Virus record (IMG/VR): IMGVR_UViG_3300021387_000072
Coordinates: 1 to 64,000 of that record
Origin: a virus
Lineage: Duplodnaviria > Caudoviricetes
Reading direction: 5' to 3' (one strand)
Length of the DNA stretch: 64,000 bases
The translations under genes and the position numbers were made by a program. Below, one piece after another: positions 10,701 through 41,404 of this stretch. The stretch's first letter is position 1. Every line of letters begins with the position of its first letter. Under the pieces are notes generated by a model. The model did no database searches. It was not told the DNA's origin and saw nothing but the letters and a program-made list of their open reading frames with translations.

Positions 10701-13700
10701 CAAATTCTCTTGCCATACCATACAGATTATACGCGGCATTACTCTTTATATTAGAAGCAACTTCATCATACTTATCTTTAAATGGATTATCTGATTCTGA
10801 AGCACCAAGACTTTCAGACCAGCTTTCAATCATTTCTGCAAGCTGTTGAGCTGCAGTATCGCCAGTGCTTTTCAGTGCTTCTACTATAGAAGAAATATCT
10901 ACATCTGGTGTTGAAAGATTTTGATTATCAAGTACATCAGCATACTGTTTCAACTCTGCGTTAAAGAAATCTCTTACAGTATCATCAGACTCTTGCATCT
11001 GTTGTTCAAGCATTTTTCTTGCAAGCGCCTGATTGCCCTTAACCATATCAGCCGTCCAACCATTACCAAGAGCAGAAGCTATCTGTTCATATGTACTGGT
11101 AGAAGCTCTGCCTTGTTCCATTGCATCAAGAAGATATCTGTTGTTAGCGTTAGTACGACTCTGTGCCATGAACTGGCTTTGCAGACTATCTCTGCTGCTT
11201 TGACTACCGCTCCATGCGCCGAGGTAAGATACAAGCTGACTGTAATTATCTTTAGACTTATCAAGATCAAGCTGTTCAATCTCAGCAAGAAGATCTTCTT
11301 CATTACCGTAGTTTACATAATTACTCCAGGAACTGAGTTGGCCCAGGACAGATTGTGCATGCTGACCAAACACATTGTCTCGTTCATCTTCATGTGTCTT
11401 CCACCAATCAAGATACGCCGCATAGTAATTACTTGATCTGCTTTGATAAGGATTTGCATACGGTTCAAGCATAGCCAATGCCTGTTCATCAGTAATGGAA
11501 CCTTCATCTCTTGCTTGGATTAACGTATTAATATCAGCATGATCTTTTATATAGGTACTCCAGTCAACATTCTCAAGACCTTGCATACCTGCGAGAGCAT
11601 CCATTGTCTTTTGTCCGGCATATTGATTATTGCCAAAGATAGTCTGAAGACCAGTAAGTACACTACGTTCTTGTTGATTAGCAAAGTTTCTGCTTGCATA
11701 ATCAAGATTGGAATAGAAGGAACCAAGCTGATCATTGGTAGCCGGTGTATCGAATACAACTTCACCATTTTCGTATCTGGCTCCGATGGATTTTACAAGC
11801 TGTGCTATCTGAGGATTATTCTTTAAGGCATAATTGTATAATGATTCACTGTCCATTTCTAAGAATGGAGATGATCCTAATTGCAGCGTATCAAAGATAC
11901 CTTTGCCAACACCTGTAGTCCAGTTGCTGATGTTGGAATATACATCTGATTCAACATCAGTAAGATTTTGTTCTATGTTTTCCAGCGTTAAATCTTTTCT
12001 GTTGGTAGCAGCCTGAACAGCCTGAAGATTCTGATCAGTCAGTTCACCAGCTCTTATTCTTTCAATAGCTCTCAGTGCGTCACCATACGTCTTCCGTTGT
12101 GAGAGCACTGAAGACATGGTGGACGTACGTTCGCTATACGTGCCACCAAAGCCTTTAATAATAGAGGCTTGTGTTTCAGCCCAGTCAGTCTTACCGACAC
12201 TGCCAGTAAGTATCTGATTAACAAGATCAGCTATAATCTGATCAATGGATCCTACTCCATTAGTAATATAATCTGAGAAGCCAGCGACACCATTAAGATC
12301 TGAAAGTATCTGTGCATTGAATGCATTATCCTGATTAGAAAGAATTGAATCCTGATTATCTCTAAAGTATTTGAGAAGTTCCAACTGATAAGAAGAACCT
12401 TTACCAGTTACCGGATTAAGCATAGCATCAAACATCAGGTTACGGATATTAGCAGGAAGTGTTTCTTCTGATGCATTAAACAATATGTTGGCAAGGTCAT
12501 TACCTTCCATAAACTGTTTAATGGTTGCATCACTGAAACCAGTAAGAGTTGAGAGACTACCTTCAGCTCCGTTTCTCTTATTGCGCATAGCTGTAAGGAT
12601 AGTCTTTTGCATAGAATCACCAGAAGATAATCCATACAAAATACTAGAATAGATTTCAGAGGTCATTTCATTGAATTGATTTTCATCAAACAATACCTCT
12701 CCATTTTCTATACGCACATTAAGTTCTCTTATCGCACTCTTCAACATATCACTTACGCCAGTTCCGAGTGTTTCAATGATTTCATCAGTGTTCATGTCAT
12801 GTTCTAAATCTATTTTATTGATTTCAAAAACATGTTCGAAACCGTTAGCAATACCTTGAACATAATTCTTAAGAGTCGTGTTAATCCGTTCAGTTACTGT
12901 TTGCAATACTTCTTCAAAGTTTCCTGCATCAATTTCCCGATTTGCAAAACTTTGAAGTTCTGACAAAGCAGCAGCTTCGTTTTTCTTCATGTAATCATAA
13001 CTCTTACCTTGAGCAGTACCAGCAGCCAGGCTAACCTTGCTATATGTCCTTAGATTAGACATTAAACCAGCCAATGCGGAAGCCTGCTGATCATATGTAC
13101 CCAAGCCAAAGCTTGAGACAAAAGATCTTGTTGTATCTGCATAATCTGATTCGGCTATATTATCTAAATGCTTAACAGTCTCTATTGCTTTTTCAACATT
13201 ATATCTGTCGTTTACATCAGTGCTGCCACTGATAACTCTATCCAATCCAGCAAAGCGGCTGAGAATATTATTATACTGTTCTCCAGTAACACCGTTTGTA
13301 TCTTGCCATGATTTAGCGTTGAATGTGCCGCTATCAACTTGAGCAAGAATATCAGAAGCCCATCTAGCATACTGTAAACTGTTGGCAGTATCTGTTCCGA
13401 ATTGATATTTATTGTAAAGATAATCAGTGAATTTACTTATATTTTCACCATTCATCAGACGGTCATAATACTCACTGCCAAGCACTTCCTGCATATCAGC
13501 GATAGCCTGTATATCTTTAAGGTTATCTGATTTTGAAAGTGTTCCACGATCTTTGGTTCCAGTTATGATCTGGGATACGTAGTCTTTAACATTAGCAAGC
13601 TTTTCATCATTAGTTCTATATTTCTTGATACCAGTTTTCAGTTCATTAAGCTTATCAGTATCAAGAGTTCCATCTTTATACAGTTCAGTAAAACCGGATA

Positions 13701-16700
13701 GAGAACTAAGTTCTGAGAGTATATACCCCTCAATTAAATCATTTGGATTAAGGACGCCTTTTTTATCTTCATAATATCCAAGCAGTCTATTGTAATATTC
13801 ATTGTTTTTATTAAGTGTAGGATTCCTCATTCCACCTAATAACATGGCAGCAAAAGATCTATCGAGTGTTCCGTTTATACCGGCAGCATAGATGTTGGTT
13901 GCATTGGCGTTGCCTTCCATCCATGTCTGTGTTCTTTCATTATCAATACCAGTAAAATGATTCAAGCCAAACTTTGTGCCTGTGTTATTTAACTTCTCTA
14001 TCATACCAGAATACATAATGTCATCTATATTGCCAGCTTGATTTATACCGGCAAGTAATGAAGCTATAGTATCCTGGGAAATCTTTTGAATTTCGCCTTC
14101 ATCCCATTTGACTTTTCCGTTTTCAATTGTGAGTTTTAAATCTTCAATAGCAGTCTTAAGCCAATCTCCAACTGCGTCGCCCAATGAATCCAATGTGGCG
14201 AGAAGTTCAGTTGTACTCATATCTGTATTTAAATCAACTTTGCCAGAAAGCAATGACGAAAAACCTTCGTTAATACCATCTTCGAAATTCTTAACAAGCT
14301 CGTTATATGTTGATTGTACTGTGGCTTTCATCTGTTCTGCATTCGTTATATCTATATCAACACCAGTAAAGTTTTTAAGTATTTCAAGATCAGATGCTGT
14401 ATACGAACCTACACCAGCATTAAGTCTACGCATAGCAGCTGATGCTTTATCTATTTCATCATTCCTTGCTATAAGCTTTGAATACTCTGAAAGCTGTGTG
14501 CTGTACAATTGACCAGGCGTAAAAGCTTCAACGATGCCTTTAGATATATCAGAGTAGTTTGATTCTTTTATTAAACCAGACGCTATTGCGGCGTTTGTGT
14601 TACGCCTCATAGCGTCAACATCGTAATTTCCAGATTCAAGTTCTGTTTGGGATAACCCCATAAGCTCACGCATATTTCCAATACTTAATATGCGCTCTGC
14701 ATCAGCTTCGGAAATATCAAAATAGTTTGCAATATCTTTTGCAGAAAACTTAGCACCATCATGTTCATTTTTGAAGGCCATTAACTGTCGTGCATAATTA
14801 GCAATTTCAGAATCAGAAAAAGTGCTTACTCCATAAGCATATTGATTTGAAAGAGATCTTAATTCATTGTCACTGATTTTTTCTCCACGCGAAAGTCTTG
14901 CCGCAACATCTTCACCATAAACACTTATAATATCTTGTTGCATACGCTGGCGTAATTGTTCGTCTTCAGCAAGCGTAGTCCATGTCTTATTACCTGAGAT
15001 AATACTTTCTGCATTTGTACGTGCTGAATTCAGAATAGAATTCTTACTTCTATATTGTCCTACTGTTTTGTAATCAGATCCAAGAAGAGAAAGCTGATAC
15101 ATAACTGCATTTATATCATCTTGTGTAATAGTTCCAGCTTCATAATGCTCTGTCATAGTCTTCCATGCTGCATTTAAATCTGCACTCTTGGTGTCAGCAA
15201 GGAAGTTTTCAATATTTCCAAATGCACCAGAACTAAGTGCCTCATCTAAATATTTAACAGCTTGATCTGGTTTATAAAGAAGGTTTTGACCTGTTGCCAT
15301 AAATCTATATAAAGAATCAGCAAGAGATGTAAATCCATTCTTAGGTGTTATTGAATAAACAGAACTAATACCACGGCGTTTAGGTGTTTTATCATTACTA
15401 TCTTCGCCATTTGAATCTTCAGGTGAAGAATGTTCTGCCATATAAGCATCTGCATAATCAAAAAGATTGATTTGTTTAGTAGGTGTTATTTTATTATTGT
15501 TTAAATCTGTTTTGATTTTTTCTATAACACCGGATACAACAGTATTTTCATATCCAGCATCAGTTAAAATTTGTCTTGCTTTTGATTCATCTTGTGCTTC
15601 GAACTGTCCAGCTAATGTGTAGTCTCCAAGTATTCTACCATCTGGATCATCTTTAAAAATAGCTCGTATTATTGCAGCTAATATCTCACGAACATTTCCA
15701 TGCTTTGCATCTACTTTTTTATTACCATTAACTATGAAGTTATCGTAATTTGTAAATGTGACACCAGCATTTTGCATTGCATTTAAATAATCATTGATAA
15801 TATTAGCTAAACTATTTCTGCCTTCTATGGGCATGCTAGATAATTCTGTGCTTTTTCCATTAGCATCTACATAACTAGGCATACCTCTTAAATCTAATCC
15901 ATATAATATATCTGCTATTCTATCAGACCCAGTTTTTCCGTTATTAAGGACAAACGGATCCATTGCTGCTCCAAGAAGTTTAACTCCTAAATATGATCCG
16001 AATGATCTTGCCTCAATATCCGTGATTTCTTTTTGTTCTCTTGTTGTTTCAAACTCATTATTATTGTTGAAAAAGTCTGCCCACATTGCATTCCACAATT
16101 GTTCAAGCTGACGTTTATTAAATTTATCAGTTGAATCGGCTGCATTATCAAGAGCTTCCTTTGTTTTATTTGCGCTTGCAGCCATTTCTTCTATACTGCT
16201 AGACGCAGTATCTGATATTGCGCCAAGATTCTGCAATTCGGTTAATGCATTTTTCAGAGATACACTATCTTTTGCAGAAAGAAAACCTTTCTCGTCACGT
16301 CTTTCGTTTATTTCCGATGCACGTTGTTTTAAAGCTTTTATTCTTTTCGTATTCGCAGCATTTTCTGATTCTATATTATCTTGTACTTGTTCATATTGAT
16401 TATCGTATTTTGGCTGTGAAGAATTAAATATACTTAAACCGGCAACTGTTGCAGCACCAGCAGCAAGACCAAGTATTGGATGCCCGGTCATAAACAGCAA
16501 AAGCGTTGGAAGTAATGCAGCAAATGTAGTAAGAATACCCTCAAGACTACCCATACCGCTTGTAAGTTTTTCTACACCAGCAATAGCATTAGTAAGGAAG
16601 TCTATAAATCCAGTAAGTGCACCGCTGTCTGTGAGACTTTCAACAAGAGAATCAAATGTATTCTTAAGATTGGTAAGAGAAGCATTGAGACTATCGAGAT

Positions 16701-19700
16701 AGTAGCTGTACTTCTCATCTGTCATGCCTTCAGAATTTTCACTAAGCTTCAGATATTTATCAATAGCAGTAACACCATTTTCATCACGTTCTGCCATAGC
16801 AGACATAAGAGCATTGATATTAGAATACTGTCTCTGACCGCCAAAAGCATAAGCAAACTGTCCCTTACGAGCGGGAGAAAGATCATCCCACTGTTCAGCA
16901 ACAGCTGATAAAGCTTTCATAAATGGCAGGCGTTCTCCACCTTTATATATATCTACACCAAGCTGCTTGAAGATATTTGTAAGATCAGAGCCGGAGATCT
17001 CATTACCGTTCTCATCATACATGAGTTCCTTAGAACCAACCTTTGCGTAACGTCCCATGAATGTCTGCATTGCAGTACCGGCTACGTTACCGCCAAGCTG
17101 GGTATTAGCAGTCATTGCTGTAAGCATAGACACAAGCTCATTGAAAGAAACACCAACTTCACTTGCCGCATAGATAGATTTCTGCAGACCTTTGGTGATC
17201 TCAGCCGCAGTGGTGGCGGCTGAGTCACCAAGGGCTGAAATAACATCCATAGCCTGCTTGGCAGAATCAACCATGCCAGAATTCATTGCAACTGTAATGA
17301 GCTTAACTGCATCTGCTGCTTTAACGCCAGCTGTTGTACTGAATTTGATAACCTCATTAAGACGTTCTTCTACCTGAGTATCATCAAGACCTTGACGATA
17401 CAGAGCAGTGGCTGCTGATGTAACATCTTTAATAGGAGCTTTGAGTTTAACAGCAGTATCAATCAGCTTATCTCCAAGACCACCAATCTGTTCATCTGTT
17501 TTCAGAGTAACCATTTGAATCTCAGTCATAGCCTGATTAAACTGTTTGGTAAATTGAATAGCTTCTTGCATAGCTTTACGCCAAATACGAGTACCCAGAC
17601 GCTTTGCTATCATACCAACAGTCTGGCTGATAACAGAACCAATAGACTTAAGAAGATTAAAGGAATGATTGAACTGTTCCTGTTCTTTTCTTGCTCTTGC
17701 TATTGAATCCTGAAGCTTTTTATATTCCGCATCCAATGCCGCAATCTTTGCTTTATTAGATTCTACATTTTCACCTTGATCAACTTTATGTTGAAGCTGT
17801 TCTCTAGCATAATCTAAGCGCTTCATTTTTCCTTCATTGCTTTCGATTATGTTAGCAGCCTGATCCTTCATGCTTTCACGCCAGTTATACTCTTGAGCAA
17901 ATCTTGAAGCTATACCATACGAGCGAGTATATCTACGCATGGCAATATTTCTTTCAAACTGTTCTATCTGACGAGCAGCCTGATTGCCTGCAACGTTATA
18001 TTGATGCACATCCATATCAGTCTGAAGAGTATTTAATCTGCCAGCGTGTGCCATATCACGACTCTGATATTGAGCAAGAAGATTCTTTTCATAATCAGAA
18101 AGTTTTTCAACTTGTCCTTTTATATCTTTTTCTCTCTTCTGCATTGCTTCAATAAGTTTCTTGCCATCTTCAGAATTTTCATCTATCGCATTGCCATTCA
18201 TATCAGTCTTGCTTGTAAGATGGCTTTCTATATCAGCAGCTTCACTTGACAGCTTTGCAATGAGTTGCTTAACCTGATTCTGCTGCTTTTTATAATACTC
18301 CTGGACAGCTTCTACTGGTGAAAGATTTCTACCCCTCGTCAGTTGATCAATATTTATATCATTCGTAGAGATGTCAATATCAGATGCAGTACTGTAGTCT
18401 TGTGCGAGCCTCATGTTCATCTTCTGTTTTTCTTCATCAGAAGCTGCACTCTTACGCACCATCTCTACACCGCTCATGAGTTTATCGGTGAGACTATCAC
18501 TGCCATAAAACAGTGTATTTGTTCTACGTTCAATTTCATGTGTAGATCTGTAATAATCATTATCTTGTAAGGCAGTAAGCTCATCTTTTCTTTTTTCAAG
18601 CGCATCCAATTCATCAAAAACTTCTTGTTGTCTTGCAAGTGCTGCTTCAAATTCTGGAGACTTTTTATCTTTAATGGAGTCGGTCTTCTCACTCCACATA
18701 TCAAAATCTTTTTGTTTTTGCGTAATAGCACTTTCAAGTTTCTGTCTCTCAATAGCATGATTCCTTTGAAGCATATTAGCTTCAGTTGTACCGCGAGAGT
18801 TGAGAAGTTCATTCATCTGTAATGTACTATCAAATCTATCAAGACGTGCAAGAGAATATATATCATTGATAATACCTTCAGATTCATTGTACTGTCTATT
18901 GGCTTCGGTGTATTCACCTCTAAGAGCAGTACGCTTTCTTTCCATGTAGGAACGATTTGTCTGAAGATCAGTTAATCTTTTTTGCTCTTCAGCAGAAAGT
19001 GTAACACCATCATTAGGTTTTAATTCTTCTATTTGCCTATCGATATCTTTAATCTGTTGATTATAATTCTGTATTTCCGCAAGAGTTTTGTTTTTTTTAT
19101 TGAAGGCATCATTACGCTGATTAATTCTACGTTCATTCTCAGCATAAGCTCGACTATAATGACTCTCAAACTCACCGTTCTTTGACATATCCCAACGCCT
19201 GGCTTGAGAAGCCGTAGCAAAGTTGATAGCCTGTGCTTCGTTTAATGTATTAGTTCTGAAGTTACTATTGCGTGCGGCTTCATCTTCTCTTGCGTACCGT
19301 TTATTTCTTTCTTCCTGTTGAGGCAATGTATCAGTCATGGCCTTATTGAAAGATTCTTTAAGACCATTCATTGTCTGTACATACTTTTTCAGATCTTCAA
19401 GAAGAGAAGACTTTTCCGTTGACAGTCCAGTTGCTTTCTGCTCAGTTTCCAGTTGATCTATTTGATTCTGAACCTGAAGAACTTCACTGTTAATTTGATT
19501 TACAGTTTGCTGTGCATCAAGAATCTGATTCTGATACTGCTGAGCAATACGCTCACTCAAAGACATATTCTTGCCGCGAGTCATCTGGGCAAGCTTCTGA
19601 GAAAGAGAAGTAGTTCTTACTGAGATATTAGCACTTGTACCTTCACGAAGAGCTTTCATATAATTCTCTTCTTCTTTGCTTCTCTGCTCGTCAGTAAGAG

Positions 19701-22700
19701 TACTATCTTTGCTATTACGGATATTATCAATATTTATAAGACCGCTATGTACAAGAGATGCAATCCTTGACTCACCAGTACCATAAGCGTTGCCAACAAA
19801 GTTCATATAGAGATCACGACGCAGAGCCGCTATATCTCTTCTGTCACTGGATGTGGCTATTCTTTCTTCCGTTGCGTTACGCGCTTCAGTGGCAGCATCT
19901 CTTTGTTTTTCAAGTTCTTCTATCTGAGCTTGTATTCTGGCTCTTTCATTTTCCGTATCCGTATTTGTTCCTGAAGAAATCGGCTTTCCATCTGCTCCTA
20001 AAATTAACGAACTTCCTGGCGCTTGATAAGGTTCTTTATTCAGCTTGTCTAATTCATTTTGTTTTTCTGTGATTTGATTATTTAATCTTTCAATATCCAG
20101 ATCCTGACTATCTCTTTGACTATACAAGTTGTTAAGATTTGCTTGCTTAGATGCAATAGCATTAAGAATAGGATTGCTTTCACCAAATCTTTGATATGTA
20201 CCAAAAGCAGTATTCGTCAATCTATTTAAATCAGTTTGATCAGAAAGTCTGTACCTCTGATAGCGCATGCTGTTTAAGGAATAATTCAAATTCCTATTAG
20301 CTCTATCTCTGACTTCAGCTATTTCTTCTTGCTCTTCTCTCTTTAACCTATCGGGTTCTCTCAGTGCATCAATCTGCTTTTGATGTTCAATAAGACGTTC
20401 ACGTTCTTTTTCAAGATTGTCTTTAACATGTTGTCTGTTAGCACTAAGCTCTCCTTGAAACTCCTTAGAACTTAAACGTAATTCAATATCAGAGATAGCA
20501 TGCGAAGTATTAATCTTTTCTTGTTCAAGTTGCATGCGTCTTGCCTGATAGGATTCACGAACCTGTTCTTCAGGTGTAAGACTTCTTGATAAATTAAAGC
20601 TGTTAAGACGCTGTCTTCTTGATTCATCCTGCAGTTTCATATTATGTTCCATGGCAGCATGCAGTTCATTGTACCTTACTGTTTTATCGTAAGGGCTTCC
20701 ATGTTCCATAATCTCGCTAAGACCTTCCGTCATTGAAGAAAGTGTTTCTTCTCTGACACCCCAAAGACCTCTACGCCAGGATGCTTCTGTTTCCTTTGTG
20801 CGCTTTGTGCGATACTCATCAAGCTTACCTTTAAGAGCTTCTGCATCTTTTACATCCTGTTGTAATTCTTTACTTCTGGCTTGTTGTGCTTTTATCGTTT
20901 CTTCATCTTTTATTATCTTATTGCCTTGATCATCAGTTGCTTCAAGATCGCTTGCAATTCTCTTAATAGTGTCTGTCCGTGATGAAATATAATCTTCAAG
21001 ACTATCTGCTATACCATCAAAATATGAATCTACTTTATCAAAAGGATCTGCTCCAGATTTTGTAAAGTCAAGGCTCTTAAGAATTCTTCTTTCAGCTTTT
21101 CTTTCACTTTGAAGTCTTCTATTTGCTCTAAGCTGAATTCCTTTCACACCACGATCCTTGTCTTTTGTCATCGATTCAATGGCTGCTGTAAGATCATCAT
21201 ATATCTGTTGATCTTCTGCTTCGGTAAGAGACCAGTTTCCATCTTTATCTTCTGTGTATAATTTTTGCTCTTTACGTTTTGCTACAAAAGCGTCACGAAG
21301 TTTGCTGACTCTTTCTATATCTCTGTCGTATGAATCTATAAGATCTTGATCTTTAACAAACGATTCAGATACACCATTTACTTTTCTTCTAAAATATTCA
21401 GGAAGCATCTTGGCTTGATGCTTTGTATAGTTTGTAAAAGCCTTTTTTGTTTCTTCTTCTTTATCTATAACAGCTTTGTTAATGTTTCCGACAAAAGCTT
21501 GAAGCTCTAGATTATCCTTGTAATCATCTGCCCCTTGAACACCTTTAACAAAAATATCAGACTGACGCTTGAATGCATCCAACCAACCAAACATTGCATT
21601 GAAATGCTGTTCATCACTTGTTAACTCATCATTAAAACGGAGATCTTTCTTTAAAAAGTTTGAAAGTTCATTACCGTTATTAGCGACCTCGGAATACATA
21701 GTCTGAGCTTTTTCAAAACGCTCTCTTCTTTGTCTTGCTGTTTCCTGTATGTCCGCTGCTTTCTGAAGCAAAGCTACCATTGGATCTTCTGGAGGCTGTT
21801 CAGGCTGTTGTTGATTGTTAGAAGAACTTGATTGATCGCTCGTAGTATTTGCTTGTGAAGAAGTATTAGTGATAGTAGGTGTAGAAGTTTGTGGTGGTAT
21901 AGGTATTTTAATTAAACCATTTTCTATATCAGTGCGAACTGCGTTTTGATATTTCGCATACTCAGCCTTATCTATTGTGTCCCATGCTTTCTTTCCATAA
22001 TCTTGTGTGTAAGCAAATCTGATTTTTCTAAGATTATCATCTTGTGCAAAAGCATCATTTGTTTCTACCGCCTCTATATTTGACTGATATGATATGTTGC
22101 CTTGTTCATCTTTTACTTGCGTCAAAAACATTTTATAGGGGTCGTAGTAATGATCGCCTTCCCAAGCTTTTCTTGCAAATTCTTCAAGCTTATGTGCATA
22201 TGCCATAGCTTGCAGCAATCCTTTTTCTGCACCGTGCCAAGATGATTTATGGTCACCAACTATAAACTTACCGTTCGCTCCCTGTAATATATAGTCAGGA
22301 GCAAAACGAGACATAACTGGATTCCCTTTGCTGTCAAAAATACCATTTAATTCAAAAGGTATTTCTCCTTTTACAAGATCGTCAGCATTACTTGTCTTTG
22401 TTAGTCCAAGTCTTTTTGCTGTAGCTTCATCTACGTTTATCTTGCCTTCGGTACTTATTACATGTTCTCCATCCCATTGTTCTGAATCAAACGGATGGAA
22501 TGTATCACTCATGTAATTGAATAAAAACTGACCTGGTTGTTGCTTGCCATCTTTGCCAGAATAGATCGTATTAAGCTTTTTATTAATTCTTTTTGCTTCA
22601 CTTTTTCTTCCATCCAATGCTGATCTAACTCTGCCAGTTTTTTCATCGATTTTAAGTTCAGCAGCATCAAGCAATTCTTTTGGCTGTGAATTAAAAAAAT

Positions 22701-25700
22701 CATTCCACAAACCTGCAGTTTTTTCAGATGTCAATTCATCAGTAGGAAGTTGTGCCAGTTCATCCATTACATAACTTATGGCAGATCCAATCAATGCATC
22801 AGCATTAGTGTTTTCTGTATCGACCCAACCTTTTTCACCGGCATGCTGTGCTGCACGAATTTCAGCTTTTAACTGCTCTGCTCTATGAGCATTTGTATTT
22901 CCTACTCCGATGTTAACAGCTTTTTTATATTCTTTATCTGTTACAATATTATTATTGTTATCAAAAAAAGTCAGTCTATCTGCTGGCAATTGAAAAGTAG
23001 TTTCAGTTAATCCATTGCCTGCGATAAATGGCATACTTCGTGTTACTGTATATTCAGTATAATCTCTTGCGCTTAACAATTTGCCATTAGCATCTTTAAC
23101 TTTAGTATCAATAGGATCTTTTTCTATATTGGAAAGATTCCAACCTAAAAGTCTTGAATCAGCATAAGCTTTTCTTTCTGCTTCACTGGCTGATAATACT
23201 GTCTGTTGTTGCGCAGCAGCGGCATTCTGCTGGGCCGCTTGCTGCGCTTGAGCAGCTTGTTGCTCTTGAGCTGCTTGAGCTTGCGATGCTTGTTGTGCCG
23301 CCTGTTGCGCTGCTTGCTGTTCTGCTGTCTGCCGCGCTTGATCATATTCAGCTGCTTCCCGTGCTTGTTGCTGAAGCTCTTCTTCTCTGCGTTTTTCTTG
23401 TTCCTTCTGTGCTTTTTCATACCGCGCTCTCTGCATAACGGCTGTTTCATATGGGCGAGACAATTGCCGGTCTTCGCCAGCAAGAAACATATTTCTAGTT
23501 GCTGTCGGCATATTTTGATCTGTCAAAACCTTCTCATAAGTCATGCCGAAGTTCTTCAGATTTTCAACAACGTTTATGCCGCCGTCTCTAATATCGGCTA
23601 TACCAAGTTCTTTAAATAAACGTTGCGATTCAGCTTGCGCAGTTTTTATCTTGCCATTTTCATCTCTTAAATAAGTTTGATTTTCAAAATCATAAAGATT
23701 GCCATCAATACTTTTTTTACTGAGATTTTCTGAGATTTCTTCTTTTGCTAAATTTGCCGCAATTTGAAGCCTTTGCATATCTACATCTGATGTTAATATC
23801 TTCTCACCTGATTCGTTGGCTGGAAACAGTTGCATATACATATTCATGAAATTTTTAGTTCGTTCGCCAAGATCAGCATACTCTTCTGAATCATATATAA
23901 GATGAGTTATACCTTCAGATGCAGCATCGGTCATACTTTTATCCATATAAGGAGAAGCCCATTTTCTAAACAGAGCGCCTGATTGTGCAGCAGCACTGTA
24001 AAAAGATGGAAGATTTGTATGCATTAAGTTTATCTTCTTTAAAGCATCCATATCTACAATCACACCGTTTGATGCTTTAAAGTACCGTCTATCCCATTCA
24101 TCTGCTTGTTGCAAAGAAGACTTATCATTCAACGCACCTTCTGGCAGATTAGCTAAACGCATCCTTTGTGCTATTATTTTCTTTCTATCTGCCAATGTAA
24201 GATCTTCCAAATTGTCTACATTGTAATGCCTTTTTATATAAGTTCTATCTTTTCTATTAAAACCTTTAAAGTCTAAATTCCCTGCATCTCTGTCACTAAT
24301 ATGTTCCGGCTTTATATCATTTTTAAAATATCTTCCGAGAGGCAGGTCTATACCAGGAGTAATATCCAATAAATTAAATTTAGAATATTCTTTGCCAAGG
24401 TTTAATGAATTCCATGCATAGTCAGAAACTTTACCTTCACCTGGTCTCTTTGCAAGAGTAGACCAGTAGTTATAAGCTTCAGTACCTTCGAGACTTGATA
24501 AAATCAATTCAAGATTTGCATCATCTGATAAATCTGCCTGATTAACTCTACGAGCCATTGCATCAGCAAGACCCATTCGAATCTGTTGTTCGATTAAATT
24601 TTCAGCATAAGAACTCTTGATATTTTCATCATTTGGAATAGCAGTTCCATCACCTGTTTTAGGTGTCCATGTGAACATACCTTTTGTTGGTCTTCCGGCT
24701 TTCTTAACACGATCCCAGTGAAATTCCTGTGTCTCCTTAAACATCGGTACATACGTACCAATAATTCTTTTAATAAGGTCACCGTCAAGGTCAGCACCTT
24801 GAAGTGCATTCCAGTCTTCTTGACCAAGCATTACGCCACCAGTCTCAACAAAACGAGGAGCAAGGTTACCAATTTTCGATGAATCGTAATTATTTGCAAG
24901 AGCATCAAAAATTACACCAAGTTCTCTGGCTCTGTTTTTACCATAAACAAAACTGCCAATAGCCGTAGGACTTCTGCCAAATGCAATATATTCTTCATTC
25001 GGAACTGAGAAGTCAGCAACATTACTTATCTCTCTGCCATCTATATCTCTACTTCTTCGCAACAGCAAAATATCTTTAACACGTTCTTCGACAGCTTTTC
25101 TTCTATCTTCTGTTGCATCTTCTGCAATATCATATGTTGTTCCAAACAGTTTATTCCCATCTTTATCAGTCGCATTAGACAATGCTTCCTGTGCGATTTT
25201 TACAATACCGTCTGGAACACCATAAGCCTGATATAAAGCAGTAAGTGGATTCATAGAGTTTTCTATTATTCCAAATTCTTTGCCACTGAAATCAATCCAT
25301 TCATGACGTGACATTCTCTGTATTAATGAATCTCTATATTCTTTAATCTTTGTCTGTGCTTCATCTGAACCTATTAGCATTCTTGCTCTGTTCTCTGTTG
25401 CACTATTTATCTCTCTCGAAAGTGGATCATTGGGATCTTGAAAAACATATTTTTTAATACCTTCCAATGTATCCAATTCTTTCATTCTCTGTTCAAAGTC
25501 AGCACGTTGTCTTTCCTGCATCTCAGGACTTATGCGCATATATTCAGTCATTTGTGTTCCGAGATAATCAGACTTAGTACTGCGAGAATCGTAGTCAACC
25601 ATCTGACCAATTGGATGATGCCTAAGAAGTTCACCAGCTATATTATTAACACCAACAGCCAACATAGTTGGATCATTAGTTGCGTTTTGATCATACATGC

Positions 25701-28074
25701 CGTACTGCTTTTGTGCGGCATCCATTACAACATCAAGGTTTTTTATCAATGATGCATCCATAAACCCATTATAGTTTATAGCGTCAAACCTAACGGGTTT
25801 CATAATGGTTTTGCCATTTTCATCTTTTGTTTCGTATTTTATTGGACTGTTTACCCACCAATGATAATCTTCAGTAGGGTTACCATTAATATCTTCTTTA
25901 ACCGCAAGACCTGAACGTATGGCAAAGTCTCTGTTTGTTTCACCAGGAAGCCTACGCAATGACCCTTTGAAAGCAGTGCCGCCTCTAAACTGCATATTTG
26001 CAGGAAGCATATCTTCAGATACAAAACCAATACCGTCAAGATATTTTATTTTTCCTGTCTCATCTCTGGTATCGATAATAGCAATGTTTCCAGGAACTGT
26101 ATGCATTTTGCCTTTTTCATCATAAATAGTACGATCAAGAGTAATACCTGTTTTTGTTGTTGGAGTCCAGAGTTTATTTAAAGCATCGAAATATCTGCCA
26201 GCTTCTTCCTCCGACATAAATGGAGCATTAGGATCTCTGTACAGACTAAAGGCATTTCCTTTAAAACCAAGTCCTTTAGCCCATGCTTCATTTTTTTTGA
26301 TATAATCATTCATAGCATCTTCAGATATCATTCTGATAACAGCACCGCCTGCTTCCTGATGGGAAGCATGCGCTATCATATGATTATATCCGTCTACTTT
26401 TTCAAAAGACATTTCACCTGTCTCAGGATTTACCCATGCACCATTTTTAAAAATATCTCTTACACGCTGTACATGTTCAGCATTGTTTTTGTCATAGCCA
26501 TCCATCGATATAAGAGCTATTCTGTCATGCGCTTTTGAATTATGTCCACGTTCCTCAAGACCAAGCATTCGAGTCATTTCAGACTCAGGTATTGTTTCGT
26601 AATTTGTTGTACCTGACATACCTCCGAACAGCTGGTGTTTGCCGATAACATATCTATCGTACCCAACTTTCATTGGTGTTATTTCTTTTCTTTCAGTACG
26701 GCTATCTCTTCTAGATGATGTCCATCTTTGATCGTCGCTCATGCTTTCTATGCTGTCAAGCATACGAAGAGCATCAAGACTTTGTCGTGAGGATCCACCT
26801 TGCATACGGTTAAAGATAAACTTCTTGACTTCGTTCGAAGAATCTCCCTCTTCAGTTCCTTTTGCAAGATACATATTGTTAAGCCAGGAATTGAGACCAG
26901 TAGAACTCGTTCTGTTTTCGAATTGATTCCACATGTAACTACGGATATCTTCAAGATCGTCGGCTGTTAAACCTTCTCTCATTTCTACATATCCATGCGG
27001 ATTATAATAAGCAAGCGTTTGATTATCGCGTGAACGCTTCATTGTAAGCATTGCTTTTGCAAAAACCGGGTTATCCCGCATTTGTGCTTGAAGCATATTC
27101 ATTACTTGCTGAGAAAGATATTTACCGGAACTTTGTTGTGTATCACGTCTTTGATATGCTTCTTTATCCCATGCGCTTTTGAAACTTTCAGGTATCAACA
27201 ACGCCGGGTCTGTGTATGAATGTTTTTGTGCTCTGTTTAAGTTTATTCCATAAACAGGTTTAGTGAATTCACTTAATCTTTCAGGAGCCATAGTATGTGC
27301 AACAAGATGCTGTATATATTGCTGCATGTTTCTGTATGCGGCATTTCCAAATTCATCTTCATCGCCCCACATACCACCTTGAGGACCTTTTGCCTGACCA
27401 AAGAATGGTTCAAGTATTTTTTGAATTCTCTTATCTGCCATAATAGCATCAGAGATTTCATTCAAACTACTTCTCGCAATAGCATCAGATCCATTGTAAT
27501 TAGGAGCAGTTCTTCTCTTTATAACATTTACTATATCTGATGTTATAGCGTTAAGCCCTGCGGCACGTTCTTGACCAAGTGCACCTATAATACCTTGCAT
27601 ATATTGTTTGGAATGATTTATACCAAAAGGAGTATCACCAGTAACCATTGTTGCAAGTTGATTATATTCCCTTTGGCTGATAAGCAGATCGTTATAAGCA
27701 TTCTGCTTATTTTCCAATGACATATTGGTATTCTTAATCAGACCATCAATTCTCCGTGTAAGACCTTCCGCAGTAGTGCCAGCTCTTACAAGACTTCTTT
27801 CAAGCATGGATCCAAATACAGGAAGTCCTTCCATTGAAGCAGTAAGACCTTCAAACTGTTTCTGTGTATTCGCCACCTGGGCCTGCATAGTAGCGAGCAA
27901 TCCGTTAAGAGCTTCAAGTCTCTCGGCATCACTTGGTGATGTTATGCTACCTTGCTCAGAAGATTGTTCCAGCTTCTGCTTTTCAGCCTCAACCTCTTTC
28001 ATCTCTTCAAGCGTTTGACTTGCATTACTGTGCAAAGTAAGTTCTAAGTCTATGTTCTTCTTGTTATCAGACAT
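7741..28074 (-). CDS. Giant tape measure polyprotein (6777 aa): two-barrel RNAP-like domain, PD-(D/E)xK nuclease-like domain, coiled-coil repeats, TMP core and TM segment
   Basis: Lies between chaperones and Dit; TP901-type TMP core about aa 3500-3830 ('MDVISALGDSAATTAAEITKGLQKS'); hydrophobic segment about aa 3846-3883; RNAP motifs D680GIG, Q695FRGG..K703G, R1034SP, D1095LDGD; nuclease PD1927..D1941HK..Q1955xxxY. Confidence 0.9.
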   Translation of the reverse strand: MSDNKKNIDLELTLHSNASQTLEEMKEVEAEKQKLEQSSEQGSITSPSDAERLEALNGLLATMQAQVANTQKQFEGLTASMEGLPVFGSMLERSLVRAGTTAEGLTRRIDGLIKNTNMSLENKQNAYNDLLISQREYNQLATMVTGDTPFGINHSKQYMQGIIGALGQERAAGLNAITSDIVNVIKRRTAPNYNGSDAIARSSLNEISDAIMADKRIQKILEPFFGQAKGPQGGMWGDEDEFGNAAYRNMQQYIQHLVAHTMAPERLSEFTKPVYGINLNRAQKHSYTDPALLIPESFKSAWDKEAYQRRDTQQSSGKYLSQQVMNMLQAQMRDNPVFAKAMLTMKRSRDNQTLAYYNPHGYVEMREGLTADDLEDIRSYMWNQFENRTSSTGLNSWLNNMYLAKGTEEGDSSNEVKKFIFNRMQGGSSRQSLDALRMLDSIESMSDDQRWTSSRRDSRTERKEITPMKVGYDRYVIGKHQLFGGMSGTTNYETIPESEMTRMLGLEERGHNSKAHDRIALISMDGYDKNNAEHVQRVRDIFKNGAWVNPETGEMSFEKVDGYNHMIAHASHQEAGGAVIRMISEDAMNDYIKKNEAWAKGLGFKGNAFSLYRDPNAPFMSEEEAGRYFDALNKLWTPTTKTGITLDRTIYDEKGKMHTVPGNIAIIDTRDETGKIKYLDGIGFVSEDMLPANMQFRGGTAFKGSLRRLPGETNRDFAIRSGLAVKEDINGNPTEDYHWWVNSPIKYETKDENGKTIMKPVRFDAINYNGFMDASLIKNLDVVMDAAQKQYGMYDQNATNDPTMLAVGVNNIAGELLRHHPIGQMVDYDSRSTKSDYLGTQMTEYMRISPEMQERQRADFEQRMKELDTLEGIKKYVFQDPNDPLSREINSATENRARMLIGSDEAQTKIKEYRDSLIQRMSRHEWIDFSGKEFGIIENSMNPLTALYQAYGVPDGIVKIAQEALSNATDKDGNKLFGTTYDIAEDATEDRRKAVEERVKDILLLRRSRDIDGREISNVADFSVPNEEYIAFGRSPTAIGSFVYGKNRARELGVIFDALANNYDSSKIGNLAPRFVETGGVMLGQEDWNALQGADLDGDLIKRIIGTYVPMFKETQEFHWDRVKKAGRPTKGMFTWTPKTGDGTAIPNDENIKSSYAENLIEQQIRMGLADAMARRVNQADLSDDANLELILSSLEGTEAYNYWSTLAKRPGEGKVSDYAWNSLNLGKEYSKFNLLDITPGIDLPLGRYFKNDIKPEHISDRDAGNLDFKGFNRKDRTYIKRHYNVDNLEDLTLADRKKIIAQRMRLANLPEGALNDKSSLQQADEWDRRYFKASNGVIVDMDALKKINLMHTNLPSFYSAAAQSGALFRKWASPYMDKSMTDAASEGITHLIYDSEEYADLGERTKNFMNMYMQLFPANESGEKILTSDVDMQRLQIAANLAKEEISENLSKKSIDGNLYDFENQTYLRDENGKIKTAQAESQRLFKELGIADIRDGGINVVENLKNFGMTYEKVLTDQNMPTATRNMFLAGEDRQLSRPYETAVMQRARYEKAQKEQEKRREEELQQQAREAAEYDQARQTAEQQAAQQAAQQASQAQAAQEQQAAQAQQAAQQNAAAAQQQTVLSASEAERKAYADSRLLGWNLSNIEKDPIDTKVKDANGKLLSARDYTEYTVTRSMPFIAGNGLTETTFQLPADRLTFFDNNNNIVTDKEYKKAVNIGVGNTNAHRAEQLKAEIRAAQHAGEKGWVDTENTNADALIGSAISYVMDELAQLPTDELTSEKTAGLWNDFFNSQPKELLDAAELKIDEKTGRVRSALDGRKSEAKRINKKLNTIYSGKDGKQQPGQFLFNYMSDTFHPFDSEQWDGEHVISTEGKINVDEATAKRLGLTKTSNADDLVKGEIPFELNGIFDSKGNPVMSRFAPDYILQGANGKFIVGDHKSSWHGAEKGLLQAMAYAHKLEEFARKAWEGDHYYDPYKMFLTQVKDEQGNISYQSNIEAVETNDAFAQDDNLRKIRFAYTQDYGKKAWDTIDKAEYAKYQNAVRTDIENGLIKIPIPPQTSTPTITNTSSQANTTSDQSSSSNNQQQPEQPPEDPMVALLQKAADIQETARQRRERFEKAQTMYSEVANNGNELSNFLKKDLRFNDELTSDEQHFNAMFGWLDAFKRQSDIFVKGVQGADDYKDNLELQAFVGNINKAVIDKEEETKKAFTNYTKHQAKMLPEYFRRKVNGVSESFVKDQDLIDSYDRDIERVSKLRDAFVAKRKEQKLYTEDKDGNWSLTEAEDQQIYDDLTAAIESMTKDKDRGVKGIQLRANRRLQSERKAERRILKSLDFTKSGADPFDKVDSYFDGIADSLEDYISSRTDTIKRIASDLEATDDQGNKIIKDEETIKAQQARSKELQQDVKDAEALKGKLDEYRTKRTKETEASWRRGLWGVREETLSSMTEGLSEIMEHGSPYDKTVRYNELHAAMEHNMKLQDESRRQRLNSFNLSRSLTPEEQVRESYQARRMQLEQEKINTSHAISDIELRLSSKEFQGELSANRQHVKDNLEKERERLIEHQKQIDALREPDRLKREEQEEIAEVRDRANRNLNYSLNSMRYQRYRLSDQTDLNRLTNTAFGTYQRFGESNPILNAIASKQANLNNLYSQRDSQDLDIERLNNQITEKQNELDKLNKEPYQAPGSSLILGADGKPISSGTNTDTENERARIQAQIEELEKQRDAATEARNATEERIATSSDRRDIAALRRDLYMNFVGNAYGTGESRIASLVHSGLINIDNIRNSKDSTLTDEQRSKEEENYMKALREGTSANISVRTTSLSQKLAQMTRGKNMSLSERIAQQYQNQILDAQQTVNQINSEVLQVQNQIDQLETEQKATGLSTEKSSLLEDLKKYVQTMNGLKESFNKAMTDTLPQQEERNKRYAREDEAARNSNFRTNTLNEAQAINFATASQARRWDMSKNGEFESHYSRAYAENERRINQRNDAFNKKNKTLAEIQNYNQQIKDIDRQIEELKPNDGVTLSAEEQKRLTDLQTNRSYMERKRTALRGEYTEANRQYNESEGIINDIYSLARLDRFDSTLQMNELLNSRGTTEANMLQRNHAIERQKLESAITQKQKDFDMWSEKTDSIKDKKSPEFEAALARQQEVFDELDALEKRKDELTALQDNDYYRSTHEIERRTNTLFYGSDSLTDKLMSGVEMVRKSAASDEEKQKMNMRLAQDYSTASDIDISTNDINIDQLTRGRNLSPVEAVQEYYKKQQNQVKQLIAKLSSEAADIESHLTSKTDMNGNAIDENSEDGKKLIEAMQKREKDIKGQVEKLSDYEKNLLAQYQSRDMAHAGRLNTLQTDMDVHQYNVAGNQAARQIEQFERNIAMRRYTRSYGIASRFAQEYNWRESMKDQAANIIESNEGKMKRLDYAREQLQHKVDQGENVESNKAKIAALDAEYKKLQDSIARARKEQEQFNHSFNLLKSIGSVISQTVGMIAKRLGTRIWRKAMQEAIQFTKQFNQAMTEIQMVTLKTDEQIGGLGDKLIDTAVKLKAPIKDVTSAATALYRQGLDDTQVEERLNEVIKFSTTAGVKAADAVKLITVAMNSGMVDSAKQAMDVISALGDSAATTAAEITKGLQKSIYAASEVGVSFNELVSMLTAMTANTQLGGNVAGTAMQTFMGRYAKVGSKELMYDENGNEISGSDLTNIFKQLGVDIYKGGERLPFMKALSAVAEQWDDLSPARKGQFAYAFGGQRQYSNINALMSAMAERDENGVTAIDKYLKLSENSEGMTDEKYSYYLDSLNASLTNLKNTFDSLVESLTDSGALTGFIDFLTNAIAGVEKLTSGMGSLEGILTTFAALLPTLLLFMTGHPILGLAAGAATVAGLSIFNSSQPKYDNQYEQVQDNIESENAANTKRIKALKQRASEINERRDEKGFLSAKDSVSLKNALTELQNLGAISDTASSSIEEMAASANKTKEALDNAADSTDKFNKRQLEQLWNAMWADFFNNNNEFETTREQKEITDIEARSFGSYLGVKLLGAAMDPFVLNNGKTGSDRIADILYGLDLRGMPSYVDANGKSTELSSMPIEGRNSLANIINDYLNAMQNAGVTFTNYDNFIVNGNKKVDAKHGNVREILAAIIRAIFKDDPDGRILGDYTLAGQFEAQDESKARQILTDAGYENTVVSGVIEKIKTDLNNNKITPTKQINLFDYADAYMAEHSSPEDSNGEDSNDKTPKRRGISSVYSITPKNGFTSLADSLYRFMATGQNLLYKPDQAVKYLDEALSSGAFGNIENFLADTKSADLNAAWKTMTEHYEAGTITQDDINAVMYQLSLLGSDYKTVGQYRSKNSILNSARTNAESIISGNKTWTTLAEDEQLRQRMQQDIISVYGEDVAARLSRGEKISDNELRSLSNQYAYGVSTFSDSEIANYARQLMAFKNEHDGAKFSAKDIANYFDISEADAERILSIGNMRELMGLSQTELESGNYDVDAMRRNTNAAIASGLIKESNYSDISKGIVEAFTPGQLYSTQLSEYSKLIARNDEIDKASAAMRRLNAGVGSYTASDLEILKNFTGVDIDITNAEQMKATVQSTYNELVKNFEDGINEGFSSLLSGKVDLNTDMSTTELLATLDSLGDAVGDWLKTAIEDLKLTIENGKVKWDEGEIQKISQDTIASLLAGINQAGNIDDIMYSGMIEKLNNTGTKFGLNHFTGIDNERTQTWMEGNANATNIYAAGINGTLDRSFAAMLLGGMRNPTLNKNNEYYNRLLGYYEDKKGVLNPNDLIEGYILSELSSLSGFTELYKDGTLDTDKLNELKTGIKKYRTNDEKLANVKDYVSQIITGTKDRGTLSKSDNLKDIQAIADMQEVLGSEYYDRLMNGENISKFTDYLYNKYQFGTDTANSLQYARWASDILAQVDSGTFNAKSWQDTNGVTGEQYNNILSRFAGLDRVISGSTDVNDRYNVEKAIETVKHLDNIAESDYADTTRSFVSSFGLGTYDQQASALAGLMSNLRTYSKVSLAAGTAQGKSYDYMKKNEAAALSELQSFANREIDAGNFEEVLQTVTERINTTLKNYVQGIANGFEHVFEINKIDLEHDMNTDEIIETLGTGVSDMLKSAIRELNVRIENGEVLFDENQFNEMTSEIYSSILYGLSSGDSMQKTILTAMRNKRNGAEGSLSTLTGFSDATIKQFMEGNDLANILFNASEETLPANIRNLMFDAMLNPVTGKGSSYQLELLKYFRDNQDSILSNQDNAFNAQILSDLNGVAGFSDYITNGVGSIDQIIADLVNQILTGSVGKTDWAETQASIIKGFGGTYSERTSTMSSVLSQRKTYGDALRAIERIRAGELTDQNLQAVQAATNRKDLTLENIEQNLTDVESDVYSNISNWTTGVGKGIFDTLQLGSSPFLEMDSESLYNYALKNNPQIAQLVKSIGARYENGEVVFDTPATNDQLGSFYSNLDYASRNFANQQERSVLTGLQTIFGNNQYAGQKTMDALAGMQGLENVDWSTYIKDHADINTLIQARDEGSITDEQALAMLEPYANPYQSRSSNYYAAYLDWWKTHEDERDNVFGQHAQSVLGQLSSWSNYVNYGNEEDLLAEIEQLDLDKSKDNYSQLVSYLGAWSGSQSSRDSLQSQFMAQSRTNANNRYLLDAMEQGRASTSTYEQIASALGNGWTADMVKGNQALARKMLEQQMQESDDTVRDFFNAELKQYADVLDNQNLSTPDVDISSIVEALKSTGDTAAQQLAEMIESWSESLGASESDNPFKDKYDEVASNIKSNAAYNLYGMAREFAKSGIDLNNKDDVTGWLEDNQYTDEQFNNIISDSEYVAFTEARNSGIITDPMYDEYLRGKQYGISGRTTEYGESLMSKLFGGADWTGDASSLDLNSARSVYQNMLAQGFDVDSELQATGVEGMEDLISAFKDGTTTGEEFADVMSKVNNGFDKKHSSDVHRYADNAEEVASNFNTLKGRAKDVTSFMSNMNKTMAQANDNQYWRSQYRKGNRNNDVLDKISEMTGFDKKDLTDKSKADVIEEALQRAEEGDLDMINDYIDTFTSDIQDAVNAQGAIEIIGPEVYVSGGTVTMSSEEVLSQLGAFINEDVAAMIQMMQAAGVEAYWDISEVNGKLTAKLNTSKTGFAGGGTGRKASGGGGGGGNSETDAQKLLKRIKHGKSLYEHQIKMVQYEETKYQNKGELSNYGKMLEEEIKLEQAYQPVLETNIQKIKDQMAATKSGSDDWYDLRDALLAAEEEMSELNNTIEENQKKLEENQEAIRQTRITLEDMLAQEIQNRIQKQRDMLAGTVSMQDTILQAIRDRYTKEWELVKKDIDKKKQALEEEKSLIDERLQMRKDAEDEAEKYEELAELKKQLALIEMDSTRTKDAAEMRKKISDIEKDIGWDIAEKQADAQKASIDDQTKAYDDYVTAGDEQLATFLEDANNFTSEMTEIMGMNHDQLFAWLQNNVDEFKNSLAKAQEQMVQSWNDTWKQMTGQTDTYWDWINQILATKESFLDFMKQSDDYINKSATEQQSLLYTWGQQYDAMIDANILNASWYHDDPNTGDWYGTEYVGGKGGSGSGSGSGGSSNNSGSNKNKNNKNGPSITPVVDEAKDDVVDITDLVYGNKNKTPTITPTSNVANIVMNEVKNRILKTAVKADTGTYTGDQEGLLYVHEKERVLNAQQTAAFEELVDTAEQMYHSNMFDNIIEAMHTYSDFVRVPSMLSDFSPSDFKNSTTSTIGDVIITLNEAKFEDEADYEAVARHVGEQFVKELTRQGLGVPVFGF

Positions 28075-29039: not shown

Positions 29040-29041
29040 GC

Positions 29042-29506: not shown

Positions 29507-29561
29507 CTTCATCACCTTATTTCCTTTAAAAACCTCTGTAATTATGTAGAGTTTTACAAAT

Positions 29562-29601
29562 AAAAAAAGGGATAGTTGCAATTCGGTTGCAACTATCCCT
29601 T
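29562..29601 (-). terminator. Intrinsic terminator after tail tube gene
   Basis: GGGATAGTTGCAA/TTGCAACTATCCC stem plus T7 on the minus strand. Confidence 0.85.
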
Positions 29602-29640
29602 GAGATTATACAACCTTAATTAACCTTTATATAACCTTTA

Positions 29641-41379: not shown

Positions 41380-41404
41380 TGCAGTTTCCTCCTGCAAATT
41401 ATTA

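Follow-up and report, generated by a model that had tools for sequence, protein, structure and literature searches.

What is a nuclease-like domain doing inside a tail protein of a phage? The question is raised by the virus record IMGVR_UViG_3300021387_000072, a complete virus genome of 126,028 bp with direct terminal repeats, of which positions 1 to 64,000 were analysed (hereafter the window). One uninterrupted open reading frame (ORF) of 6,777 codons occupies a large part of its minus strand (7741..28074). Judged by its sequence, this ORF is the giant tape measure protein (TMP) of a siphovirus-type structural operon: residues 3547-3742 match PF10145 (PhageMin_Tail) in Pfam with an E value of 6.5e-20, and the gene for the distal tail protein (Dit, 6590-7666) lies immediately downstream. 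A first-pass annotation, made from the sequence alone, had proposed that the protein carries a RecB/Cas4-like PD-(D/E)xK nuclease domain beside an RNA polymerase (RNAP). The best explanation of the evidence, to which we would give a probability of about 60%, is that the domain is a diverged, cysteine-free nuclease of the RecB/Cas4 branch which is delivered at infection and acts on DNA ends or single-stranded DNA (ssDNA), most likely on the end of the incoming genome. The phage probably delivers this nuclease together with its DNA.

The domain was originally placed at 21900-23150. A domain is found there, but its better bounds are 21907-23202, slightly wider than proposed. The two low-complexity linkers said to enclose it are real, and residues 1625-2056 can therefore be regarded as a separate, linker-bounded module. 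Only three low-complexity stretches occur in the whole TMP, and two of them flank the nuclease domain. In the relatives described below, the first linker has an E/A/K-rich equivalent and the second has a P/G/N-rich stretch at its position. The following parts of the protein are needed first:

7741..28074, minus strand: giant TMP ORF, 6,777 aa, 0 Cys; a single ORF with a PF10145 core and Dit downstream
23203..23403, minus strand: Q/A-rich helical linker, aa 1558-1624; from a low-complexity scan, and one long helix in the model
21907..23202, minus strand: RecB/Cas4-like PD-(D/E)xK domain, aa 1625-2056; from conservation, hhalign, AlphaFold models and fold searches
21985-22809, minus strand: confidently modelled nuclease core, aa ~1756-2030; from AlphaFold
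21790..21906, minus strand: P/T/S/Q-rich linker, aa 2057-2095; from the low-complexity scan

An exhaustive phmmer search of 1.84 billion representative proteins returned the TMP itself and one other cluster only. A word-indexed search of 5.8 billion protein clusters found six relatives (P0002-P0007), all of 5,144-5,797 aa and all with PF10145; these six and the 6,777-aa TMP under study are the seven homologues referred to throughout. Domain alignments in which the ends of a short query were scattered along long proteins were left out. Among the relatives from the 5.8-billion-cluster search there is no shorter or stand-alone form of the nuclease domain. A tblastn search with the nuclease domain and the RNAP region against 50,697 phage records gave no match, and an alignment-driven scan of IMG/VR for relatives of the domain returned nothing. 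The degenerate DNA pattern GDHKSS...KG..Q...YA had no match in viral or genome contigs, and in the metagenomes of JGI it was found on the P0007 contig only. As far as these sequence searches reach, the domain is so far a family confined to seven giant TMPs.

The seven nuclease domains are ~30-35% identical to the query, and yet several blocks are the same in every one of them. These are DYxEYTVTR (aa 1671-1679), ADAxIGSxISxVMD (aa 1758-1771), TEGKI (aa 1875-1879), RFAPDY (aa 1923-1928), GDHKSS (aa 1940-1945), KGxxQxxxYA (aa 1951-1960) and NIxxxETxDxF (aa 1999-2009). Compared with the six relatives, residues 1901-2000 have a mean identity of 0.46, a value exceeded within the N-terminal 3,400 residues only at aa 1001-1100 (0.53), the segment with the DxDGD motif of the polymerase-like module. 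A working enzyme would be expected to look like this, with its active site preserved and the sequence around it free to diverge. The motif strings quoted in the first-pass annotation were exact in both letters and residue numbers: RFAPD1927YIL starts at aa 1923 (22285-22308), FIVGD1941HK at aa 1937 (22246-22266) and LLQ1955AMAY at aa 1953 (22198-22218). The active-site motifs, some of which align to a stand-alone Cas4-like nuclease of the same phage that is discussed further on, are these:

22759..22803, minus strand: motif I helix ADALIGSAISYVMDE, aa 1758-1772, with invariant A-D-A-x-I-G-S-x-I-S-x-V-M-D; aligns to NAFASLGSLVHALIDE of the stand-alone Cas4-like protein; a helix in the models
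22438..22455, minus strand: strand motif STEGKI, aa 1874-1879, with TEGKI invariant, including E1876; aligns to GTETKY of the Cas4-like family; a beta strand in the model
22291..22308, minus strand: motif II, RFAPD1927Y, aa 1923-1928, invariant in 7/7; aligns to the motif-II Asp of the family; at the start of a strand
22240..22257, minus strand: motif III, GD1941HK1943SS, aa 1940-1945, invariant in 7/7; paired with LDHKSKS in the stand-alone nuclease; closes the next strand
22195..22224, minus strand: motif IV, KGLLQ1955AMAY1959A, aa 1951-1960, with K, G, Q, Y and A invariant; aligns to QQYLY; in the long helix after motif III

The arrangement PD..DxK..QxxxY is the signature of the RecB family. 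In the TMPs the catalytic residues D1927, D1941 and K1943 are invariant in all seven, and so are Q1955 and Y1959 of the QxxxY motif, which lie in a helix (1946-1971) and are aligned to the Q...Y of the family. The G-x-x-x-H-x-x-x-(D/E) motif of the N-terminal helix is present as GSAISYVMDE (aa 1763-1772), which aligns to GSLVHALIDE of the stand-alone nuclease; Y1768 within it is a His in the other six TMPs. Read from the alignment, the metal-binding and catalytic set (D1771/E1772, E1876, D1927, D1941, K1943, Q1955 and Y1959) looks complete.

The invariant block NIxxxETxDxF (aa 1999-2009) follows the catalytic helix, in a region (aa 1992-2030, window 21985-22100, minus strand) where hhalign gives a weak C-terminal match (P 0.035) between NIEAVETND and TIEKIENAD, the latter from TIEKIENADLF in the stand-alone family. 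This block may be another piece of the fold that both have in common. Near the N-terminal end of the domain, DYTEYTVTRSMPF (aa 1671-1683) was taken by eye for the N-terminal 'YSxLxxFxxCPxxF' motif of Cas4 with its cysteines replaced, an idea that hhalign did not support and that was dropped. An in-frame homing endonuclease or intein was rejected as well: the domain has the same position in all seven TMPs, contains no cysteine and no splicing motifs, and has linkers on both sides.

Does a protein with these motifs also fold like a nuclease? Two AlphaFold2 runs were made, both with no templates and with an alignment of TMP sequences only. The first model covered aa 1470-2110 with a mean pLDDT of 45.8. 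Its top Foldseek matches were to ACE1, of the Cas4 family, and VIA-align matched 237 residues to the nuclease domain of AddB (Z 6.5), although the VIA search with this model was swamped by coiled-coil matches to the linker helix. The second model, restricted to aa 1728-2052, has a mean pLDDT of 58.8 and a pTM of 0.58, with the catalytic core at 70-90. Here D1927 opens strand 1928-1931 and D1941-x-K1943 closes strand 1937-1943, with Q1955 and Y1959 on the long helix after it and GSxISxVMDE on an upstream helix; in this model the placement of the motifs is that of the PD-(D/E)xK superfamily, whose alpha-beta-beta-beta-alpha-beta core has its Asp where strand two begins and (D/E)xK on strand three.

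Searches with the second model all lead to the same group of enzymes. Foldseek against the PDB put ACE1 first (prob 0.95-0.96, E 0.011-0.023), and most of its other matches were RecB, AdnA, AddA, MGME1, LHK-Exo, Exo5, the Cas4 protein SSO0001, type I-C Cas4, lambda exonuclease and, in large number, type II restriction enzymes. A search of 48,161 chains by VIA-align, which is independent of Foldseek, gave Dna2 at Z 6.6 (185 aligned), AdnA at 6.5, AddB at 6.0 (209 aligned), MGME1 at 5.6 (rmsd 3.8 Å, 135 aligned) and RecB at 5.2, and several of its ten best rows are RecB-type nuclease domains. Against the BFVD there were two Foldseek matches with E < 0.001 (best 3.9e-4, prob 1.00), and nearly all named matches were phage exonucleases of the PD-(D/E)XK, RecB or Cas4 families. 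A feature search of the ESM Atlas returned PDDEXK_3, PDDEXK_1 and DUF2800 clusters at 0.88-0.89, values to be taken as a lead only.

A further line of evidence comes from the phage itself. It has a stand-alone gene of the PF12705 (PDDEXK_1) family outside the window (G000:C1:84153-84878, L002:1471-2244; E 8e-22), which encodes a protein of 257 aa with cysteines at both ends and is apparently also present on the contigs of two relatives. A profile of 121 stand-alone PF12705-family members was compared by hhalign with the seven-sequence profile of the TMP domain, giving a local score of 37.7 (P 2.1e-4). As controls, 60 column-shuffled family alignments scored 15.6 ± 2.6 (maximum 22.0) and a reversed alignment 14.7, and the native score is thus ~8 standard deviations above the null. 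With a lower alignment threshold the match is collinear over 138 columns and holds five motifs in the same order, the aligned pairs being NADALIGSAISYVMDE and NAFASLGSLVHALIDE, ISTEGKI and LGTETKY, FAPDYIL and VVDMIL, FIVGDHKSS and IILDHKSKS, and LLQAMAYA and YKQQYLYS. Because the motifs are invariant in all seven TMPs and the profile-profile score is so far above that of the column-shuffled controls, the motif match is not a matter of chance. The 'DHKS' form of motif III is the less common one, and it is shared by the TMP domain and the stand-alone nuclease, which would be in keeping with a TMP domain derived from the stand-alone gene of this phage.

With independent methods and the profile test in agreement, the assignment to the RecB/Cas4-like PD-(D/E)xK fold, and homology to that group, can be made with high confidence. 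The identity proposed by the first-pass annotation was borne out by motifs that are invariant in 7/7 and by RecB/Cas4-type matches in three structure searches. Two objections that could be raised against it, that the fold might not be restriction-endonuclease-like and that the motifs might not be conserved, were both tested and neither holds. The injection of the domain that the annotation had suggested, and a role in genome-end processing, template preparation or attack on host DNA, stay conjectural.

The stand-alone gene directly follows one for a 392-aa protein (L002:288-1466) in which the metallophosphoesterase-like motifs GD...GNH...HGD...GHLH can be seen by eye, and the pair spans G000:C1:82940-84896. 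These two proteins may form a recombination or end-processing pair.

The domain differs from many of its structural neighbours in one chemical respect. AddB, Dna2, Exo5 and Cas4 carry an iron-sulphur (Fe-S) cluster, [4Fe-4S] or [2Fe-2S], that is held by four cysteines. There is no cysteine in the nuclease domain of any of the seven TMPs, and hence the domain cannot hold the cluster of these enzymes. The whole 6,777-aa protein has none either; six of the seven TMPs lack cysteine altogether over more than 5,000 residues, and P0006 has two. The tape measure protein gp96 of the Thermus phage P23-45, at 5,002 aa, also has zero. This suggests a general constraint against cysteine in proteins that are stored in the tail and expelled through it, and such a constraint would account for the missing cluster. 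The domain is also a natural case of a RecB/Cas4-type nuclease without an Fe-S cluster, which bears on the question of what the cluster is for.

For the role of the domain, its position in the protein has to be considered. From the N-terminus the order is an RNAP-like module, the Q/A-rich helix, the nuclease, the P/T-rich linker, about 1,400 residues of mostly low conservation, the TMP core, a pair of hydrophobic segments and a C-terminal part of 2,900 residues. The parts outside the nuclease module are these:

23575..26637, minus strand: putative N-terminal RNA-polymerase-like module, aa ~480-1500; DxDGD invariant in 7/7 and a conservation peak at aa 1001-1100
24778-24792, minus strand: DLDGD metal-binding motif, aa 1095-1099; as DxDGD, invariant in 7/7 TMPs
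16849..17436, minus strand: TMP core, PF10145, aa 3547-3742; E 6.5e-20
16420..16551, minus strand: two hydrophobic, probably membrane-spanning segments, aa 3842-3885; from a Kyte-Doolittle scan

The nuclease domain is about 1,800 residues upstream of the probable membrane-spanning segments, and the position next to a polymerase module, as claimed at the outset, stands: the DxDGD motif at aa 1095 is kept in all seven. A single polypeptide, encoded where the tail operon should have its tape measure gene, holds both the TMP core and this motif. In siphoviruses the TMP has its C-terminus at the tail tip and its N-terminus nearest the head, where the DNA end sits, and it is the first component to be expelled at infection. 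With this orientation and order of exit, and in line with the model for P23-45, the N-terminal third of the protein would leave last, just ahead of the DNA, and would end on the cytoplasmic side of the channel, as has been proposed for gp96.

Dna2, AdnA/AddB, RecB, MGME1, Exo5 and Cas4 all act on DNA ends or ssDNA, and since these are the structural neighbours, the best reading of the domain is an end-directed, metal-dependent DNA nuclease. Once in the cell, the predicted enzyme would act in a Mg2+-dependent manner on DNA ends or single-stranded DNA, right next to the tethered polymerase. Its most likely target would be the leading end of the incoming genome, where resection of the direct terminal repeat could lead to annealing or recombination; host or competing DNA would be an alternative target. 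What the analysis itself shows is the fold, the homology to Cas4-like nucleases, the conserved active site and the place of the domain in the protein; that it cuts DNA, enters the cell and has this substrate is inferred.

A number of points weigh against this explanation. The alignment behind the models is shallow, with 7 sequences and an Neff of ~1.9, and pLDDT is modest as a whole, with values below 50 for roughly one in three modelled residues. No match in the PDB is significant on its own: Foldseek E values are 0.011 or higher and VIA Z scores are below 8, a range that can reflect a common arrangement. Sequence searches with the domain gave no Pfam match up to E 10, none in PHROGs, none in NCBIfam (where the P0007 counterpart has no match either) and none by phmmer against PDB sequences, even at E 10. 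A six-frame search for PF12705 in the whole phage genome found only the stand-alone gene at 84153-84878 and not the TMP domain, whose homology to that family becomes visible only when profile is compared with profile. The presence of this canonical Cas4-like nuclease also makes a role of the TMP domain in recombination partly redundant, and a folded domain of 430 residues has no obvious fit in the lumen of a tail tube.

The fold and the profile-profile match are there, but no curated Pfam or NCBIfam model matches. As no such model is reached and the four Fe-S cysteines of Cas4 are lacking, the domain is RecB/Cas4-like in fold and active site but not a member of a named family. It is likely that similar cargo in giant phage proteins is under-annotated, since curated HMM libraries and a sequence search of the PDB both miss this domain.

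The alternative that survives best, though it is unlikely, is that the domain holds DNA rather than cutting it. A RecB-like fold could keep hold of the packaged genome by its leading end, so that the DNA stays attached to the TMP as it exits, is passed to the polymerase and is shielded from host RecBCD or AddAB, with cleavage absent or limited. In favour of this, the N-terminus of a siphovirus TMP is nearest the head and the DNA end, and the domain is directly beside the polymerase module. The best structural neighbours all bind DNA ends, and among the VIA matches is RecC (Z 4.3), an inactivated RecB-type nuclease domain. However, inactivated PD-(D/E)xK domains usually lose their catalytic residues, and here the Asp, the DxK, the QxxxY and the motif I acidic residues are invariant at about 30% overall identity, which is the pattern of an active enzyme.

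The same conserved active site would suit an injected weapon, an active nuclease with host or rival nucleic acid as its target, which would shut off the host, provide scavenged nucleotides or destroy plasmids, prophages or superinfecting phages. DNases are frequent in the polyvalent proteins that enter with phage DNA and have been proposed to degrade host or rival DNA (PMC5512222), and the separate Cas4-like nuclease beside the metallophosphoesterase-like protein already covers recombination for the phage. We regard this as improbable nevertheless. One to a few tethered copies per virion are a small dose against a chromosome, the closest folds are end-processing enzymes and not non-specific DNases, and the phage's own DNA, which enters right beside the domain, would need protection.

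It is very improbable that the domain serves the fused polymerase as an RNA or template accessory, trimming transcripts or exposing single-stranded template. It does directly follow the polymerase module in 7/7, a loose precedent exists in the polymerases of bunyaviruses and influenza virus with their fused PD-(D/E)xK endonucleases, and the endonuclease of the bunyavirus L protein is among the weak Foldseek matches. In that search, however, cap-snatching endonucleases come long after the RecB/Cas4/Dna2 group. A DNA substrate is indicated by the QxxxY motif and by the collinear match to a family of Cas4-like DNA exonucleases, and gp96 of P23-45 transcribes without such a domain. Finally, a fortuitous motif in a structural spacer of another fold, with no function on nucleic acid, might be suspected from the missing curated family matches and the modest model confidence, but it is largely refuted by shuffled controls, three structure libraries and motif invariance, which all agree.

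The preferred reading, a delivered nuclease acting on DNA ends or ssDNA, can be taken one step further, if only tentatively. The RNAP and the cysteine-free RecB-type nuclease might form a functional two-enzyme unit for first contact, assembled repeatedly at the TMP N-termini of giant-tailed phages. Processing of the leading genome end, or clearing or preparation of the template, would fall to the nuclease, and the tethered polymerase could in this way start pre-early transcription while DNA is still entering; the loss of all cysteines, and with them of the ancestral Fe-S cluster, would be an adaptation to storage and tail passage in a non-native state. This extension is rather doubtful. If it were true, the unit would add a new and mechanistically coupled step to the delivery of phage genomes.

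Some observations on the surroundings may be added. The PF10145 core is the most conserved part of the TMP (identity 0.72-0.75), and a scan of IMG/VR with it returned only an unrelated 432-aa protein on an unrelated viral contig (L003, IMGVR_UViG_3300024999_000040, 148,716 bp; 9434-10732), 26% identical to the TMP core region. This protein is outside any giant ORF, and the conserved core therefore occurs in proteins of ordinary size too. In the window, four ORFs of 151, 135, 179 and 215 aa (28184-30288, minus strand) lie between the TMP and an endonuclease gene, where chaperone and tail tube genes would be expected; none has a PHROG family match at E 0.001. The endonuclease gene, in the middle of the tail gene block, is an ORF of 197 aa (30423-31016, minus strand) with a match to GIY-YIG-type homing endonucleases (phrog_314, E 2e-31). 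Two adjacent ORFs of the head module, of 1,858 and 618 aa (35821-41397 and 41405-43261, both on the minus strand), each match phrog_4302, a family of unknown function, in several stretches, and may encode repeat-containing virion proteins.

How does this protein compare with known systems? TMPs have long been seen as passive rulers, sometimes with a cell-wall hydrolase. This has changed with the work of 2024 on P23-45, which revealed that a TMP can carry the first RNA polymerase of the phage (PMC10770324). The TMP of that phage, gp96, has a two-barrel virion RNA polymerase with a DxDGD motif at its N-terminus; virions contain this polymerase within the full-length protein, and it has been proposed to sit at the cytoplasmic face of the TMP pore and to transcribe the pre-early genes there (PMC10770324). 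Like the TMP described here, gp96 is giant, cysteine-free and has an N-terminal DxDGD, and it is the published precedent for an N-terminal enzyme cargo. The paper on gp96 mentions membrane and metallopeptidase domains but no nuclease (PMC10770324). In gp96 itself (L004:12164-27172, minus strand) there is no D...(D/E)xK...QxxxY pattern, its residues 1100-2500 have no hhalign similarity to the TMP nuclease domain or to the Cas4-like family, and Peptidase_M23 is its only Pfam match below E 0.001. With such a domain missing from gp96, the nuclease is an addition relative to this precedent. A conserved, apparently active DNA-end nuclease beside the polymerase would mean that the tail delivers a small enzyme kit and not just a channel. 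It also raises the question of how the leading genome end fares in the first seconds of infection, and whether the processing of that end is coupled to pre-early transcription.

Polyvalent proteins are another point of comparison. These are polypeptides of phages and conjugative elements with multiple enzyme domains, DNases among them, which have been proposed to be delivered with the DNA and to act early (Iyer et al. 2017, PMC5512222). They resemble the present TMP in having several enzymatic domains in one polypeptide, but they use other anchor domains and usually have a processing peptidase, and TMPs go unmentioned in that work (PMC5512222). No HExxH motif occurs in any of the seven TMPs, which makes a processing metallopeptidase that releases the cargo unlikely.

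With the stand-alone Cas4-like family, the TMP domain has the motif order in common, from the G-S-x-x-(H/Y)-x-x-x-D-E helix through the T-E-x-K strand and the Asp to D-H-K-S and Q-x-x-x-Y. It also has the same predicted fold, and its best matches in BFVD are of that kind. It is ~170 residues longer (~430 aa against ~260), with large insertions between motifs I and II (aa 1775-1870 and 1880-1920), and it does not have the four Fe-S cysteines that the stand-alone protein has. The one is embedded in a virion protein of 6,777 aa, whereas the other is a free enzyme of replication and recombination. The domain is not a Cas4 proper (CRISPR-associated, DUF83) either, as it stands without CRISPR-Cas adaptation genes or a helicase partner and is fused into a protein of a phage structural operon.

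The best structural matches in the PDB are AddB/AdnA/RecB, Dna2, MGME1, Exo5 and ACE1 (3u44_B, 9np6_A, 5ld2_B, 5ean_A, 5zyt, 7lwa, 9iac/9iab). The RecB/AddB/Dna2-type nucleases share the active-site motifs of the TMP domain, including QxxxY, but at an identity of only 10-15% and Z 5-6.6, and the TMP domain has no attached helicase and no Fe-S cluster and is found in a phage tail protein. Full-text literature searches for TMPs with a nuclease or PDDEXK domain turned up no account of such a fusion. The domain represents a new and very divergent, Fe-S-free branch of RecB/Cas4-like nucleases in a setting that is new to the literature searched, inside a TMP and beside a virion RNA polymerase.

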